From IMG/VR virus record IMGVR_UViG_2698536449_000009: a stretch of 5,850 bases of DNA. The stretch is one strand, 5' to 3'. A program made the position numbers and the translations under genes. Position 1 is the stretch's first letter. Every line of letters begins with the position of its first letter. The notes beneath the pieces are model-generated. The model saw only the letters and a program-made list of their open reading frames with translations, was not told the origin of the DNA and made no database searches. This DNA comes from a virus. Taxonomy: Duplodnaviria; Heunggongvirae; Uroviricota; Caudoviricetes. Shown here piece by piece: positions 3 through 5,850 of this stretch.

Positions 3-419
3 CAGTATCCGGATGGTAAGCCGCCGGTATGGGCAAAGTGTACGAAAGGTGTGTATCCGTCTTACTGGGAAGAATGGAAAAAAGTCAGGGAGGTGGTAAA
101 AGTTGCCTGTCCGGAGTGTGGCGGAAAGGGTGAGGTTTCCACCGCCTGTAAGGATTGCCGTGGGCGTGGTGTCGCCATTCATCGTGAAGAGTCGGTAAAA
201 CGTGGTATGCCTGTTATCAGAGACTGCCAGCGTTGTGGTGGTCGTGGCTATGAAAGACTACCATCAACGGAGGCATTTAATGCTATATGCGAGGTGACAA
301 ACCAGATAACACGCGCGTCATGGGAAAAAACAGTTAAGAAATTCTATGATGCGCTGGTGACTCGGTTTGATATTGAAGAAGCATGGGCTGAGCGGCAGTT
401 AAAAAAGGTAACTAGGTAA
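3..419 (+). CDS. Q: Antitermination protein Q, lambda family, C-terminal part (5' end lies upstream of the window)
   Basis: Frame is open from position 3 to TAA at 417-419. Translation has paired CxxC zinc-finger motifs (CPECGGKG...CKDCRGRG...CQRCGGRGY) and the C-terminal pattern TVKxxYDALV...VTR, which matches my recollection of lambda Q. Followed immediately by a PR'-like promoter and a terminator. Confidence 0.8.
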   Translation, partial: QYPDGKPPVWAKCTKGVYPSYWEEWKKVREVVKVACPECGGKGEVSTACKDCRGRGVAIHREESVKRGMPVIRDCQRCGGRGYERLPSTEAFNAICEVTNQITRASWEKTVKKFYDALVTRFDIEEAWAERQLKKVTR

Positions 420-458: not shown

Positions 459-524
459 AACAATGGGCGTTTTATGCCTGACGTTAGAAGAGTTTCTACA
501 ACCCGCCGCCGAGCGGGTTTTTTA
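459..524 (+). ncRNA. Short PR'-initiated, tR'-terminated leader RNA of about 65-70 nt (lambda 6S / StxS-like)
   Basis: Predicted start about 7 nt after the -10, ending at the intrinsic terminator 501-524. Position and size resemble the short PR' transcripts described for lambdoid and Stx phages. Inferred from promoter and terminator only. Confidence 0.35.
501..524 (+). terminator. tR'-like intrinsic terminator
   Basis: Stem ACCCGC (501-506) / GCGGGT (513-518) with a 6-nt loop, followed by a T6 run. Confidence 0.7.
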
Positions 525-991: not shown

Positions 992-2050
992 ATGCTTAAT
1001 ACTGTAAAAATATCCAGTTGTGAGTTAATCAACGCCGACTGCCTGGAATTTATCCGGTCGTTACCCGAAAATTCTGTTGACCTGATAGTCACGGACCCGC
1101 CGTACTTTAAAGTGAAGCCTGAGGGCTGGGATAACCAGTGGAAGGGCGACGATGATTACCTGAAGTGGCTGGACCAGTGTCTGGCGCAGTTCTGGCGGGT
1201 GCTGAAACCTGCCGGAAGTCTTTACCTGTTCTGTGGTCATCGCCTGGCATCTGATATCGAAATCATGATGCGTGAACGCTTCAGTGTGCTGAACCATATT
1301 ATCTGGGCGAAGCCGTCCGGACGCTGGAACGGATGCAACAAGGAAAGCCTGCGGGCGTATTTCCCCGCCACAGAGCGCATTCTGTTCGCGGAACATTATC
1401 AGGGGCCGTATCGTCCGAAAGATGCCGGGTATGCGGCGAAGGGCAGTGCACTGAAACAGCATGTGATGGCCCCGCTGATTTCTTACTTTCGTGATGCGCG
1501 AGCTGCCCTGGGGATAACGGCAAAACAGATTGCAGATGCCACAGGAAAGAAAAACATGGTGTCGCACTGGTTCAGTGCCGGTCAGTGGCAGTTGCCGAAT
1601 GAAAGCGATTATCTGAAATTACAGGCGCTGTTTGCCCGGGTGGCAGAAGAGAAGCATCGGCGTGGTGAACTGGAAAAGCTCCACCACCAGCTGGTGGATA
1701 CGTATACCTCACTGAACCGGCAGTATGCGGAGCTGCTGAGTGAATATAAACATCTGCGGCGGTATTTTGGCGTGACGGTGCAGGTGCCGTATACCGATGT
1801 GTGGACGCATAAACCGGTGCAGTTCTATCCCGGGAAACATCCGTGCGAAAAACCGGCAGAAATGCTGCAGCAGATAATCAGCGCTAGCAGTCGTCCGGGT
1901 GACCTGATTGCAGATTTTTTCATGGGGTTGGGTTCGACAGTGAAAGCGGCACTGGCGCTCGGGCGTCGTGCAATTGGCGTTGAGCTGGAGACTGAACGTT
2001 TTGAGCAGACGGTTCGGGAAGTACAGGATTTAGTCAGCCAGAACGGATGA
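992..2050 (+). CDS. DNA methyltransferase, beta-class N6-adenine/N4-cytosine family (motif IV before motif I)
   Basis: N-terminal ...SVDLIVTDPPY (DPPY at nt 1094-1105), an HPCEKP motif, and a C-terminal AdoMet-binding FxGxG motif (DFFMGLGST), then GVELE. 352-aa ORF. No adjacent restriction endonuclease gene, so it looks like an orphan phage methylase. Confidence 0.9.
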   Translation: MLNTVKISSCELINADCLEFIRSLPENSVDLIVTDPPYFKVKPEGWDNQWKGDDDYLKWLDQCLAQFWRVLKPAGSLYLFCGHRLASDIEIMMRERFSVLNHIIWAKPSGRWNGCNKESLRAYFPATERILFAEHYQGPYRPKDAGYAAKGSALKQHVMAPLISYFRDARAALGITAKQIADATGKKNMVSHWFSAGQWQLPNESDYLKLQALFARVAEEKHRRGELEKLHHQLVDTYTSLNRQYAELLSEYKHLRRYFGVTVQVPYTDVWTHKPVQFYPGKHPCEKPAEMLQQIISASSRPGDLIADFFMGLGSTVKAALALGRRAIGVELETERFEQTVREVQDLVSQNG

Positions 2051-2125: not shown

Positions 2126-2159
2126 ATGGGCTGAGCGGCAGTTAAAAAAGGTAACTAGG

Positions 2160-2187
2160 TTGATTTTTCCGGAATCTGTGGTAAATT
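2160..2187 (+). promoter_or_regulatory. PR'-like promoter, second copy (-35 TTGATT 2160-2165, -10 TAAATT 2182-2187)
   Basis: Same hexamers and 16-bp spacer as the first copy; it lies upstream of the intact tRNA genes and the cargo ORF. Confidence 0.55.
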
Positions 2188-2235
2188 CGTCATAACTATG
2201 GGCGTTTTATGCCTGACGTTAGAAGAGTTTCTACA

Positions 2236-2259
2236 ACCCGCCGCCGAGCGGGTTTTTTA
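2236..2259 (+). terminator. tR'-like intrinsic terminator, second copy
   Basis: Same hairpin ACCCGC / GCGGGT followed by a T6 run. Confidence 0.65.
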
Positions 2260-2297
2260 TTGCGGAATTAATTACGGACCGTTATTATTCTGCTCCC

Positions 2298-2373
2298 GGC
2301 CCTTTAGCTCAGTGGTGAGAGCGAGCGACTCATAATCGCCAGGTCGCTGGTTCAAATCCAGCAAGGGCCACCA
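2298..2373 (+). tRNA. ileZ: tRNA-Ile, anticodon CAU (lysidine-type, reads AUA); phage ileZ-like
   Basis: 76 nt. Acceptor GGCCCTT / AAGGGCC, D-stem GCTC / GAGC, anticodon loop CTCATAA (CAT at 2331-2333), T-arm GCTGG-TTCAAAT-CCAGC, discriminator A and CCA. Close to E. coli tRNA-Ile2 as I recall it. Confidence 0.9.
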
Positions 2374-2473
2374 TCACAAACCGCCATTAGCTTATCAGGA
2401 AGAGCAGACGACACGATAACAGGGTTGTTGGTGCGGGGGCGGGTCCCCGATGGCGGTCCATTATCGGTATTCA

Positions 2474-2550
2474 GCGTTGTTAGCTCAGCCGGACAGAGCA
2501 ATTGCCTTCTAAGCAATCGGTCACTGGTTCGAATCCAGTACAGCGCGCCA
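2474..2550 (+). tRNA. argN: tRNA-Arg, anticodon UCU (reads AGA/AGG); phage argN/argO-like
   Basis: 77 nt. Acceptor GCGTTGT / ACAGCGC (one G-U pair), D-arm GCTC...GAGC, anticodon stem ATTGC / GCAAT with loop CTTCTAA (TCT at 2508-2510), T-arm ACTGG-TTCGAAT-CCAGT, discriminator G and CCA. Confidence 0.9.
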
Positions 2551-2687
2551 TATTCATTCTTCCAGATTCCTTCCGGCAGAGCCTTATACTGAAATATACC
2601 TGGCTCAGGATATTGTTGAAAATATTTTATGTTTGTCAAAAATAAAAGTTCTGTTAAGTATTGATTGAGTGTTTGTTATACGGTCTA

Positions 2688-3014
2688 ATGGTTTTTTCAG
2701 CATTAAATATTTATCATTCATATGGTGTGGGTAGAGTGAATATTGATGAGGCGTCGGGGTGTTTCATCCTTAGGCAGCGTATTGATATAGTCAATGCAGC
2801 ACGAGCAAAGGCCTTCAGCCGTTTGACAGTTTTGTTCTGTACTCCTGATCGTCTTTCGGGAAGAGACGTTATTATTCTGAATAGTGATGCTATACAGAGG
2901 GTTTGCGATGAGTTCATGGTTGCTAATTCAGAATTATTTGCTCTTGTTCAGGAGTACAACAGAATAGCCAGGACCTGTGGTATGGATGAACTTCGGATTA
3001 CTCATCTGGGGTAG
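2688..3014 (+). CDS. Hypothetical cargo (moron) protein, about 108 aa from ATG 2688; the frame is open from 2661
   Basis: AT-rich ORF directly downstream of the tRNAs and on the same strand, in the position Stx phages use for stxAB. By my count 6 of 12 Arg codons are AGA/AGG and 3 Ile codons are ATA. No clear Shine-Dalgarno, so the start is uncertain (ATG 2688 or GTG 2736). No recognisable family. Confidence 0.45.
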   Translation: MVFSALNIYHSYGVGRVNIDEASGCFILRQRIDIVNAARAKAFSRLTVLFCTPDRLSGRDVIILNSDAIQRVCDEFMVANSELFALVQEYNRIARTCGMDELRITHLG

Positions 3015-3066
3015 ATACATATCTGGATTATCACCTGTTACGGTAAAAAGTGATTGCTTACTGTTT

Positions 3067-3096
3067 TTGTGAATGGCATTGCAGCAGCCGGATAAT
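3067..3096 (+). promoter_or_regulatory. Candidate sigma70 promoter (-35 TTGTGA 3067-3072, 18-bp spacer, -10 GATAAT 3091-3096)
   Basis: Hexamers read directly. Predicted start near 3103 at the beginning of the 307-bp repeat, giving a roughly 325-nt transcript to the terminator at 3407-3429. Speculative. Confidence 0.25.
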
Positions 3097-3118
3097 GTCA
3101 GTGCTGGCTGACGGTGTG

Positions 3119-3425
3119 CTGGTGGCGGGTGTGGTGGTTGTTGCTTTCCCGTTGCTGAAAAAGAAAACGCCAGACTGTTAGCCGGGTATCAGTTAGCGGG
3201 AGAAATTTTTAAATACTTCACAATTCAGGCGGTTGACTGTTGTCTGGTTTGCGGGGAGTTTGTTAAAAGAAACTGGCATGGTGAATCCCCCTGTGCGGAG
3301 GGGCAATCAGCGAGTAGGTATATGGGATAATCGCGGATTCAGGTGCTGGTACTGAATTCACCGGGAGGCACCCGGCATCATGCAATGGCACATAGCGCCA
3401 CTCTCCAGCCCTCTCCGGAGGGGCT
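3119..3425 (+). repeat. 307-bp direct repeat, copy 1 (structured, ends in an intrinsic terminator)
   Basis: About 99% identical to 4754-5061 (one substitution, one 1-bp indel). Contains several hairpins and no ORF with a start codon spanning it. Confidence 0.9.
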
Positions 3426-3429
3426 TTTC
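3407..3429 (+). terminator. Intrinsic terminator at the end of repeat copy 1
   Basis: AGCCCTC - TCCG - GAGGGGCT (one-base bulge) followed by TTTTC. Confidence 0.6.
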
Positions 3430-3657
3430 TGTGCCGGATACATCACAGTTTCTGGAACCTTAGGTACTACAGTATCAGTCAGGGTGCTATATTTTCAGAT
3501 GTGATGAAAGCCTGTCAGCAGGCAGGGCGTATCGGAAATGACCCAGTAGAGAAAACGTTGACTCAGATACCGGTGCTGAGTTACCGGGAAACCGGCATCA
3601 CATGACCGCTATCCTGAGGTGTACTGGCAATAGCGGACACTACCATTTGTTCTTTTT

Positions 3658-4476
3658 TTAAGCAGCCATCTGATGATATTTTTCCCTGAAGGCTGCCGGG
3701 GAGATATTCCCCAGACGAGAGTGACGACGCTGACGATTGTAGAAAATCTCAATGTATTCCCGTATTACTGAGATGGCTTCATCCCGGTTATTAAAACGAT
3801 AGTGGCTCAGGCTCTCATTTTTCAGCGTTCCCCAGAAGCTTTCCATCGGAGCGTTGTCGTAACAGTTACCTTTACGCGACATTGATGTTTTCAGACCAGA
3901 CTGCTCCTGTATGACCCGGTAATCGTATGCGCAGTACTGTGAACCTCGATCAGAGTGGTGGATTAGCCCGGCAGGTGGGCGCTGGCTCCTGAGCGCCATA
4001 AACAGGGCTTTACCTGTCAGCTCTTTTGTCATGCGCTCTCCCATGGCGTAGCCGACAATTTCGCACGTATAAACATCTTTGATGCCAGCGAGGTACAACC
4101 ATCCCTCCTGTGTGGCAACATACGTCAGGTCCGCCACCCAGACCTGATTTGGTGCTGTAGGAGCGAACGTCTGGTTCAGCAGATTTGGCGCAACTGGCAG
4201 ATTGTGGTTCGAGTTCGTAGTCGCTCTGAACTTGCGTTTCTGCTTACAGCGTAGCCTTAGCTCCTTACGAAGACGTGCCAGTCGGTCACGACCAACGATG
4301 ATGCCATTCTCTGCCAGCTCCGTCTGGAGCCGCCGGGTTCCATATGTTTCGCGAGTGCGGATATGTGCCACCTTAATCTCCAGTTTTAGCCGCTCATCAC
4401 TTTGTTTTCTGTCTGAGGGTTCATGCTGTACCCAGTTGTAATAACCGCTCCTGGATACACCAAATACCTGACACAT
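3658..4476 (-). CDS. IS3-family transposase OrfB (DDE integrase domain); in vivo made as an OrfAB fusion by -1 frameshift
   Basis: 272-aa ORF starting MCQVFGVSRSGYYNW and containing HSDRGSQY and SMSRKGNCYDNAPMESF motifs. The orfB frame stays open upstream to the A7 slippery site. Confidence 0.9.
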   Translation of the reverse strand: MCQVFGVSRSGYYNWVQHEPSDRKQSDERLKLEIKVAHIRTRETYGTRRLQTELAENGIIVGRDRLARLRKELRLRCKQKRKFRATTNSNHNLPVAPNLLNQTFAPTAPNQVWVADLTYVATQEGWLYLAGIKDVYTCEIVGYAMGERMTKELTGKALFMALRSQRPPAGLIHHSDRGSQYCAYDYRVIQEQSGLKTSMSRKGNCYDNAPMESFWGTLKNESLSHYRFNNRDEAISVIREYIEIFYNRQRRHSRLGNISPAAFREKYHQMAA

Positions 4477-4511
4477 CGCTTCAATGGGAAATTGTTGTCG
4501 CCATTGTTCGA

Positions 4512-4753
4512 TTAACGCGTATTTTTCAGCGACTCCTGTGCAAAATACGCTGTTGCTTTTTTTAATATATCTCGCTCAAGGCGAGCTTCATTTAACGCCT
4601 TACGCAGTTGCAGAATTTCAGATTCCAGTTCAGCCACCGTGCGGGAACCAGGAGTACCGAGCCCTTTTCTGGCGGCGGTAACCCATTGTCCTAAAGTGCC
4701 TTCAGGAAGAGATAATCGGGAAGCGCCTTCACTGATCGAAAGTTGATTTTCAA
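4512..4753 (-). pseudogene. IS600-like orfA, 5'-truncated (no start codon, N-terminal DNA-binding region lost)
   Basis: orfA frame ends at TAA (forward 4512-4514). Upstream the frame runs into the 307-bp repeat without a plausible start codon. Confidence 0.75.
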
Positions 4754-5061
4754 CTGGTGGCGGGTGTGGTGGTTGTTGCTTTCCCGTTGCTGAAAAAGAA
4801 AACGCCAGACTGTTAGCCGGGTATCAGTTAGCGGGAGAAATTTTTAAATACTTCACAATTCAGGCGGTTGACTGTTGTCTGGTTTGCGGGGAGTTTGTTA
4901 AAAGAAACTGGCATGGTGAATCCCCCTGTGCGGAGGGGCAATCAGCGAGTAGGTATATGGGATAATCGCGGATTCAGGTGCTGGTACTGAATTCACCGGG
5001 AGGCACCCGGCACCATGCAATGGCACATAGCGCCACTCTCCAGCCCCTCTCCGGAGGGGCT
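4754..5061 (+). repeat. 307-bp direct repeat, copy 2
   Basis: Begins exactly where IS identity stops (4753/4754) and ends at the terminator hairpin. Confidence 0.9.
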
Positions 5062-5069
5062 GTTTATAT
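5042..5069 (+). terminator. Terminator hairpin at the end of repeat copy 2; possibly bidirectional
   Basis: Perfect 8-bp stem AGCCCCTC / GAGGGGCT with loop TCCG, followed by GTTTATATT. The stop of the convergent minus-strand gene is about 30 nt away on the other side. Confidence 0.5.
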
Positions 5070-5096
5070 TGATTTTGTCAGATGTGAGTAAACTCC

Positions 5097-5432
5097 TTAT
5101 GGACTTTGTTGTTTTAGTCCATAAGGACATATTTGCAGAGTGCAACGGTTATTAAAGCATTCATTCAATACGTTATCTGTATTTGTAGGGCATTCCTGGC
5201 TATTTTTGATTGAATTCCAGAATGTTTTATTGAATGGTACTACGTTGTAAATGGTTACAGGTAGCACTTTGTTATTGAGCATGATGCCTGTGTGAGTCAG
5301 TGTAAATATACTTTCAGGAGGTAAGAAAGCATCCGATTGATACCAGATTATTAATTTTATTTTACTCCATATGACTGAAAAAGATATTCCGCATGATGGC
5401 TGGATAACTGTATCAATCACAATCCACTTCAT
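5097..5432 (-). CDS. Hypothetical protein (111 aa), AT-rich orphan moron gene convergent to the late operon
   Basis: Strong Shine-Dalgarno on the minus strand (AAGGAAACTAA then ATG). Five cysteines, Asn/Ile/Lys-rich. About 260 bp of AT-rich sequence upstream with candidate -10 TATACT (forward 5473-5478). No family recognised. Confidence 0.55.
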
Positions 5433-5692: not shown

Positions 5693-5819
5693 ATGGCATT
5701 TAAACACTATGATGTTGTCAGGGCGGCGCCGCCGTCAGATCTTGCGGAAAAGCTGACACATAAACTGAAAGAGGGCTGGCAGCCGTTTGGTAGTCCGGTG
5801 GCCATAACCCCTTATACCC
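5693..5819 (+). pseudogene. 5' part of a small conserved lambdoid late-region gene, interrupted by IS insertion at 5820
   Basis: ATG at 5693 encodes MAFKHYDVVRAAPPSDLAEKLTHKLKEGWQPFGSPVAITPYT, then the IS end TGAGGTG... begins. I recall this N-terminus from small proteins just upstream of holin genes in E. coli prophages (DUF1737-like, from memory only). Confidence 0.55.
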
Positions 5820-5850
5820 TGAGGTGTACTGGCAATAGCGGACACTACCA
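5820..5850 (-). mobile_element. Terminal 31 bp of a second IS600-like copy, same orientation as the first; continues beyond the window
   Basis: Identical to 3615-3645 (TGAGGTGTACTGGCAATAGCGGACACTACCA). Confidence 0.75.

Follow-up and report, generated by a model that had tools for sequence, protein, structure and literature searches.

In Escherichia coli, the slot between the antiterminator gene Q and the lysis genes of lambdoid prophages is where Shiga toxin (Stx) and several acid-resistance and virulence regulators are acquired. The gene order of Stx phages is established (Plunkett et al. 1999, as cited in PMC6266700): stxAB lies 3' of Q, PR'/tR', tRNA-Ile2 and tRNA-Arg and 5' of the holin gene. 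The behavior of PR' and tR' has been described (PMC7547250), and prophage AraC-family regulators of the Psr class in enterohemorrhagic E. coli are known to control glutamate decarboxylase (GAD) acid resistance and type III secretion (PMC10877973). Here, we examined a 5,850-nucleotide (nt) stretch of viral DNA, IMG/VR record IMGVR_UViG_2698536449_000009 (the window), which corresponds to the late-control region of an E. coli or Shigella lambdoid prophage. Its stx-equivalent slot holds an AT-rich open reading frame (ORF), which we found to be a genuine protein-coding gene under purifying selection. The coding sequence probably runs from a GTG at position 2736 to the stop codon at 3014 (92 amino acids [aa]). 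We consider it reasonably likely that the product is a soluble accessory ("moron") protein of Enterobacteriaceae lambdoid prophages and, with low confidence, suggest that it acts as a host-directed modulator that binds another protein. Coordinates are window positions; L003, L006, L008 and similar labels denote homologous loci or locus types.

Comparison with known systems

The first-pass annotation, made from the sequence alone, had placed the ORF in the slot that stxAB occupies in Stx phages. This placement was borne out, the order being Q, PR'/tR', tRNA-Ile2, tRNA-Arg(UCU), the gene and then lysis genes, the last seen in relatives free of insertion sequences (IS). A comparison across prophages showed that the gene keeps this slot in other lineages as well, and it holds the Q-to-lysis position in L006, L008 and L097. 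Like stxAB, the gene is AT rich (38.4% GC for 2551-3060 versus 47.9% for the whole window). However, it has no sequence or structural relation to Stx, lacks a signal peptide, and is also found on plasmids without Q. No Stx phage carrying the gene was found among 50,697 phage records.

Two closer counterparts exist, both uncharacterized. WP_001017777.1 (92 aa), a member of phrog_2873, is a relative with about 61 to 63% identity from the same prophage slot. Sb55 of Salmonella phage ST64B (phrog_4827) has the same length class and a late-region location; however, it is only about 20% identical, and its gene is located past the lysis genes instead of between Q and the holin gene.

The ORF is a protein-coding gene

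The ORF was present on the plus strand as 2661-3014 (TTG start, 117 aa) or 2688-3014 (ATG start, 108 aa). Conservation of the intact frame in related prophages, on which the first-pass annotation had staked its proposal, was found throughout: the +1 frame was the only one of the six without internal stop codons in all 11 homologues examined. For the 92-codon core beginning at GTG 2736, the ratio of nonsynonymous to synonymous substitution rates (dN/dS, Nei-Gojobori) was 0.22 to 0.31 for pairs with a dS near 1; the close pair L006/L016 gave 0.10. Near-identical copies collected from IMG/VR and genomes comprised 20 alleles in 84 loci, and the core was intact in 84 of 84. Variable sites were then counted in the 74 of these 84 loci that aligned across 2274-3200. 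Their density per 100 nt was 3.6 in the core, compared with 9.0 in 2658-2735, 11.2 in the spacer and 9.8 in the neighboring DUF3927 ORF. The single-nucleotide polymorphisms (SNPs) in the core were synonymous at six sites and nonsynonymous at five.

These data bear on whether the ORF is nonfunctional, being a chance reading frame or a conserved noncoding or RNA element in AT-rich DNA. The window-type ORF was left unannotated by the Prokaryotic Genome Annotation Pipeline (PGAP) in every RefSeq genome inspected, its ribosome-binding site is weak and its start is not ATG, as such a reading would have it. A stop-free stretch of 118 codons also arose in 0.8% of dinucleotide shuffles of 2551-3060. 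Against this stand dN/dS values well below 1, a frame that persists in homologues with as little as 22% identity and is the only one of the six open in all homologues, a confident AlphaFold2 fold, the lack of a covarying RNA structure and the annotation of a 92-aa relative by RefSeq. A nonfunctional ORF is thus very improbable and, in our judgment, essentially excluded. The claim of an AT-rich gene at this place was therefore confirmed.

Two other candidates for the interval were rejected. An antisense coding frame was open across the gene only in L006-type loci, with two to eight stop codons in the other homologues. As for an RNA element, Rfam gave no match in 2551-3060, and RNAalifold on the conserved leader gave -3 kcal/mol with no covariation. 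A minus-strand ORF at 2605-2721 is annotated in mEp460_ev081; it lies upstream of the gene interval tested for antisense frames. In L099 (NZ_CP025903.1, strain 300709), locus tags CXV43_RS07565 to RS07575 skip RS07570 exactly at the ORF. We would guess that an earlier gene call may have been dropped here on reannotation.

The start codon

Several lines of evidence point to GTG 2736 as the best-supported start. The starts of distant homologues fall within about three residues of the equivalent position, and L008, L011 and L012 carry stop codons one to three codons upstream of their ATG. In L006-type loci, the upstream extension contains no canonical start codon, and an AGGAG lies four bases 5' of the homologous GTG. 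WP_001017777.1, a related allele, was called by RefSeq at 92 aa from the start homologous to GTG 2736, and the alignment with Sb55 begins at the same point as the GTG 2736 form. Predicted Shine-Dalgarno pairing in the window was strongest at 2736 (-4.5 kcal/mol, versus -2.4 at 2688 and -0.4 at 2661) and reached -6.9 kcal/mol at the orthologous GTG of L006, L016 and L097. The stretch from 2658 to 2735 had a SNP density like that of the noncoding flanks, and in one copy an indel breaks the frame there but leaves the core intact. When the 117-aa form was modeled first with AlphaFold2, residues 9 to 23 had a predicted local distance difference test (pLDDT) score below 50.

The PHROG 2873 profile weighs against this assignment. 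It has 108 positions, which corresponds to a start of the ATG 2688 type, and additional use of ATG 2688 in the window lineage is possible. On balance, the two starts named in the first-pass annotation, TTG 2661 and ATG 2688, are probably wrong, given the homologue starts, the Shine-Dalgarno strengths, the SNP density and the 92-aa RefSeq call.

A small family with a predicted helical hairpin

The 92-aa protein has a calculated mass of 10.4 kDa and a pI of 5.7; it is soluble and slightly acidic. No transmembrane or other hydrophobic segment and no catalytic or DNA-binding motif was found in it. AlphaFold2, run with a 12-sequence alignment, gave a model with a pLDDT of 91.4 and a predicted template modeling score of 0.76, in which a helix (residues 3 to 34), a beta-hairpin (39 to 46) and a second helix (50 to 81) are followed by a short tail. 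In the predicted fold, the two helices thus form an antiparallel hairpin, and the short beta-hairpin caps it. The most conserved residues were R23, S28, V32, P37, D38, N64, L70, Y74, N75 and A78. Prefoldin beta-class subunits likewise consist of helix, beta-hairpin and helix; the sequence homology and the hexameric, jellyfish-like assembly through beta-hairpins that mark prefoldins were not found here.

Scans against Pfam, NCBIfam and PADLOC and a sequence search of the PDB gave no matches, and a fold search returned nothing informative. In PHROG, the 117-aa form matched phrog_2873, a family annotated "unknown function", with an E value of 3.8e-70 (residues 10 to 117 on profile positions 1 to 108), and the 92-aa core did so with an E value of 5.6e-58 (profile positions 17 to 108). 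The statement of the first-pass annotation that the protein resembles nothing recognizable therefore stands for characterized proteins only; the family is already catalogued, as PHROG 2873 and as RefSeq hypothetical proteins, and its function is uncharacterized. A remote relation to phrog_4827 was also detected; hhalign probabilities were 96.5% with Sb55 and 97.2% with a Mu-like member.

A search of 5.8 billion proteins together with an exhaustive HMMER search showed that the family is small and restricted to Enterobacteriaceae (E. coli, Shigella, Citrobacter and Salmonella). Full-length members in other E. coli prophages were 56 to 63% identical to the window ORF, and members of 91 to 106 aa were 22 to 41% identical (21 cluster representatives in the exhaustive HMMER search). 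All are named "hypothetical protein" in the databases, except for one evidently spurious UniRef label. No paper on the family or on Sb55 was found in the literature.

Codon usage and the adjacent tRNAs

tRNA-Ile2 decodes AUA, and tRNA-Arg(UCU) reads AGA and, less well, AGG. The first-pass annotation had proposed that the gene is matched to these tRNAs, counting 6 AGA or AGG (AGR) codons among 12 Arg codons. The six AGR codons were confirmed, but the long ORF has 11 Arg codons in total (55% AGR); 3 of its 11 Ile codons are ATA. In the 92-codon core, AGR accounted for 5 of 10 Arg codons (50%), compared with about 42% expected from base composition. Neither share stood out from those of homologues: for AGR, the comparison with eight homologues lacking an adjacent tRNA-Arg (13 of 52) gave P = 0.14, and for ATA, P was 1.0 (Fisher tests).

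The positions of the codons were also examined. Four Arg columns are common to the gene and its closest homologues (L003 and L006), and one of them is invariant; in these, CGN was used wherever Arg was kept, the one exception being an AGA in a remote Mu-like member. Each of the five AGR codons in the core occupies a variable column, and the residue there in relatives is mostly Lys, Gln, Asn, Leu, Gly or Glu. This is the signature of Lys-to-Arg-type replacement in AT-rich DNA and not of synonymous adaptation. The proposed codon matching thus has no support beyond AT-richness, with both shares at the level set by composition, and was rejected. The tRNAs may nevertheless help in translating the gene.

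Distribution and gene neighborhoods

The window-type gene was found in 1,187 of 5,426 complete E. coli genomes (about 22%). Its carriers include many enterotoxigenic E. coli, enteroaggregative E. coli O104:H4 and non-O157 Shiga toxin-producing E. coli (STEC). A selected gene that is this common, yet unannotated by RefSeq in its commonest allele, represents a small but real annotation gap. A scan of genome contigs for family loci yielded two loci only.

Window-type loci were uniform. The tRNA with a CAU anticodon was upstream in all 77 loci with enough upstream sequence, tRNA-Arg(UCU) was present too in 75 of these 77, and a tciB remnant followed immediately downstream in 70 of 71. The order in E. 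coli and Citrobacter loci was Q, then a methyltransferase and/or an AraC-family gene and/or tRNAs, then the gene, TciA/TciB and the holin gene. L003-type loci, from non-O157 STEC, had no tRNAs. They had a methyltransferase gene in six of six cases and, in eight of eight, an upstream YdeO/GadX-like AraC-family gene of 241 aa ending about 94 nt before the GTG start of the 92-aa gene. Among L006-type loci, all 22 had a methyltransferase gene and 3 of the 22 an AraC-family gene; TciA/TciB followed the gene in 7 of 16. The neighboring AraC-family proteins matched the YdeO and GadX models below the cutoffs.

This adjacency raises an alternative in which the protein is a partner or modulator of prophage YdeO/GadX-like AraC regulators (the class of PsrA, PsrB and PatE), and the window allele has lost its regulator neighbor. 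The mode of action would resemble that of ANR (AraC negative regulator) proteins, which are small and bind activators of the AraC family. Other relatives lie near regulator genes of the PapB, GerE or KilA-N type, which could be read in the same way. However, only 2 of the 77 window-type loci had an AraC-family gene nearby, and L008-type and Sb55-type loci had none. The nearby regulators come from unrelated families, as a mosaic slot predicts, and the AraC adjacency may reflect a shared cargo hot spot. In addition, the protein resembles no Pfam family, and none of 13 family members was matched by Pfam, in a copy whose inclusion of the ANR model was unchecked. We regard a regulator partner as unlikely. 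The CP-933N region of EDL933, examined for adjacency to psrA, contained neither an AraC-family gene nor the 92-aa gene.

A second neighbor is the TciA/TciB pair. In the L008 type and in some L006-type loci, the 92-aa gene is followed by TciA (TerB-like) and TciB (DUF3927); the Citrobacter (L008) type had this order in five of five loci, followed by holin genes. TciA is 87% identical to P1 tciA. Conceivably, the protein works with TciA/TciB in a membrane-stress or exclusion module, the window copy being an orphan left by deletion of tciA. The shared order is maintained between types that are only about 40% identical, and window-type loci keep the 3' half of tciB directly downstream. On the other hand, P1 has tciABC without the gene, ST64B and L003-type loci have the gene without tci, the window type is intact under purifying selection without tciA, and Tci function is known solely "by homology". 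We therefore think a dedicated Tci module quite improbable. No homologue was found beside P1 tciA (its neighbors, plp and upl, are on the other strand), and P1 was not among the hits of the family protein searches of the phage collection.

A contig of 2.7 kb, L016 (JAEWMQ010000075.1), was binned as a "Bacillota bacterium" metagenome-assembled genome. It contains the end of a methyltransferase gene, the gene, TciA, TciB and a holin gene and is probably a misbinned enterobacterial lambdoid prophage segment.

More distant members were found in other settings. In porcine E. coli, one type is carried by IncF plasmids, where PapB-type regulators are its neighbors and a tRNA-Thr gene lies upstream. 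Phage-borne tRNA-Thr(UGU) genes, in place of tRNA-Ile/Arg, also lie upstream of distant members (L005, 2595-2670; L008, 3691-3766; L011, 5349-5421). That the copy in the plasmid and fimbrial context is likewise 3' of tRNA-Thr(UGU) suggests that it derives from a prophage fragment. In ST64B, Sb55 is located in the interval from the spanin gene to the HNH/terminase genes, adjoining a KilA-N protein and an HNH endonuclease, and the genes just downstream of one remote relative are those for Mu-type DNA circulation and the baseplate. The only feature constant across the family is its residence in cargo hot spots of late regions; there is no universal partner gene.

Such constancy of place, whether between Q and holin or between spanin and HNH/terminase, or just upstream of Mu-type genes, could also mean that the protein serves the phage itself, as a lytic-cycle factor supporting late-gene expression, lysis timing or virion assembly, and is not host-directed cargo. 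However, the close family was present in only 1 of the 50,697 phage records and is nearly absent from sequenced lambdoid phages, which indicates that it is dispensable. The gene is also conserved in defective prophages and on plasmids, and its position relative to the lysis genes varies. A lytic-cycle role is unlikely.

Transcription

No terminator-like site was found between tR' and the stop codon at 3014 other than a weak one inside the ORF, and the corresponding stretch of L003 cannot form this hairpin (by inspection). No terminator was found after the gene within the window. With the path from tR' to the gene free of terminators, read-through by Q-modified RNA polymerase would be the natural expectation from the sequence. 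Q-dependent expression on prophage induction, as envisaged in the first-pass annotation, is thus plausible. Promoter-like sites at 2616-2643 (plus strand, 9 of 12 consensus matches) and 2639-2612 (minus strand, 10 of 12) were no commoner than in shuffled sequences. In L011, a relative of the plasmid type, a terminator and a promoter-like site precede the gene. Relatives behind terminators or on IncF plasmids would be expressed without Q, from promoters of their own.

Proposed role

The gene has the features of a lambdoid moron: it lies on the same strand between Q/PR'/tR' and the holin/endolysin genes, its occurrence is patchy, and its GC content is atypical. In the model that we favor, a small accessory protein directed at the host, Q-modified RNA polymerase starting from PR' would on induction pass tR' and the tRNA genes into the gene. 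In the lysogen, low-level transcription might come from the gene's own weak promoter, as the existence of relatives without any Q context suggests. The protein could then use its coiled-coil surface to bind a partner protein of the host or the phage, working as a small modulator and not as a toxin or enzyme. We hold this last step with low confidence; it follows from the lack of catalytic or DNA-binding motifs and of a membrane segment, which would make protein binding the most likely mode of action. In defective prophages, IS insertions and deletions surround an intact gene, and its survival in these IS-riddled, evidently defective elements suggests a benefit to the host cell.

As a gene that might serve lysogenic conversion, it is a reasonable candidate for functional work. 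A more specific version of this idea is that it encodes a small lysogenic-conversion regulator of a new class. Its target would be a host regulator, such as an AraC/GadX-type activator or part of the RpoS/acid-resistance circuit, and binding would tune stress resistance or the expression of virulence genes; we consider this version unlikely. Nothing pointed to a toxin or a new mechanism, and the gene is best seen as one more moron in a well-known cargo slot. The analysis corrected the gene model (to GTG 2736 and 92 aa), defined the family and its remote relatives, ST64B Sb55 among them, and removed the argument from codon and tRNA coadaptation.

Organization of the window

The features around the gene are listed in Table 1. 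Homology to the L003-type locus starts only at 2659. The DUF3927 ORF, a RefSeq "DUF3927 family protein", is a fusion in which an unrelated N terminus precedes the 3' half of a P1 TciB-like gene. Relative to L006/L016, window-type loci have lost about 600 bp that held tciA and the 5' half of tciB. In IS-free relatives, the next genes downstream are those for holin, YdfR and lysozyme.

Table 1. Features of the late-control region from Q to the tciB remnant
Feature	Position	Strand	Remarks
Q antiterminator gene, 3' part	51-419		Pfam Antiterm, E = 6.5e-32
First PR'/tR'-like block	Intrinsic terminator at 500-519		3' of Q
Winged-helix-like ORF, 65 aa	644-841		
N6/N4 DNA methyltransferase	992-2050		
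Second copy of PR'/tR' block	2149-2267	+	Intrinsic terminator at 2235-2254, the last terminator-like site 5' of the gene
tRNA, CAU anticodon	2298-2373	+	tRNA-Ile (Ile2) by PGAP in identical or near-identical loci
tRNA-Arg(UCU)	2474-2550	+	
AT-rich spacer from tRNA-Arg to the conserved gene module	2551-2657		Weak sigma-70-like matches on both strands
Open in-frame stretch with TTG 2661 and ATG 2688	2658-2735	+	Probably 5' leader, not coding
Best-supported coding sequence, GTG start, 92 aa	2736-3014	+	
DUF3927/TciB-like ORF, 43 aa	3050-3181	+	3' remnant of tciB

Upstream of the gene, part of the locus is duplicated. Positions 383-532 and 2126-2267, covering the 3' end of Q and the PR'/tR' block, are 96 to 100% identical, so the locus has two units of late promoter and terminator, each equivalent to a StxS-like short-RNA unit. 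The 5' half of the tRNA-Ile2 gene is also duplicated (2051-2125 versus 2258-2332). The winged-helix ORF and the methyltransferase module lie between the repeat copies, as if inserted by recombination.

Downstream of the DUF3927 ORF, two copies of the STnc100 small-RNA family flank a truncated IS3-family element. They are full-length matches to Rfam RF02076 at 3247-3436 and 4882-5071 (122 and 132 bits; gathering score, 47), and the 5' three-quarters or more of each lies within a 293-nt perfect direct repeat (3119-3411 and 4754-5046). STnc100 is also present in L003, so that this prophage slot seems to harbor the family regularly. The IS3-family element (3610-4754), between the repeat copies, contains orfB (3658-4476) and an orfA remnant (4512-4637), both on the minus strand. 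Its terminal sequence (3610-3645) recurs at 5815-5850, where this second IS end cuts the start of a DUF1737 gene. The exact arrangement of the window was found in no complete E. coli genome, with a best coverage of 77%, a hint that the host is rich in IS elements, as Shigella is. Between the second STnc100 copy and the DUF1737 gene lies an IraM-like anti-adaptor gene on the minus strand (5097-5432; NCBIfam NF007393, 158 bits against a cutoff of 121; 34.5% GC). Together with the Psr/YdeO-like AraC regulators of related prophages in the same slot, this gene suggests that the slot collects modulators of the RpoS and acid-resistance network.
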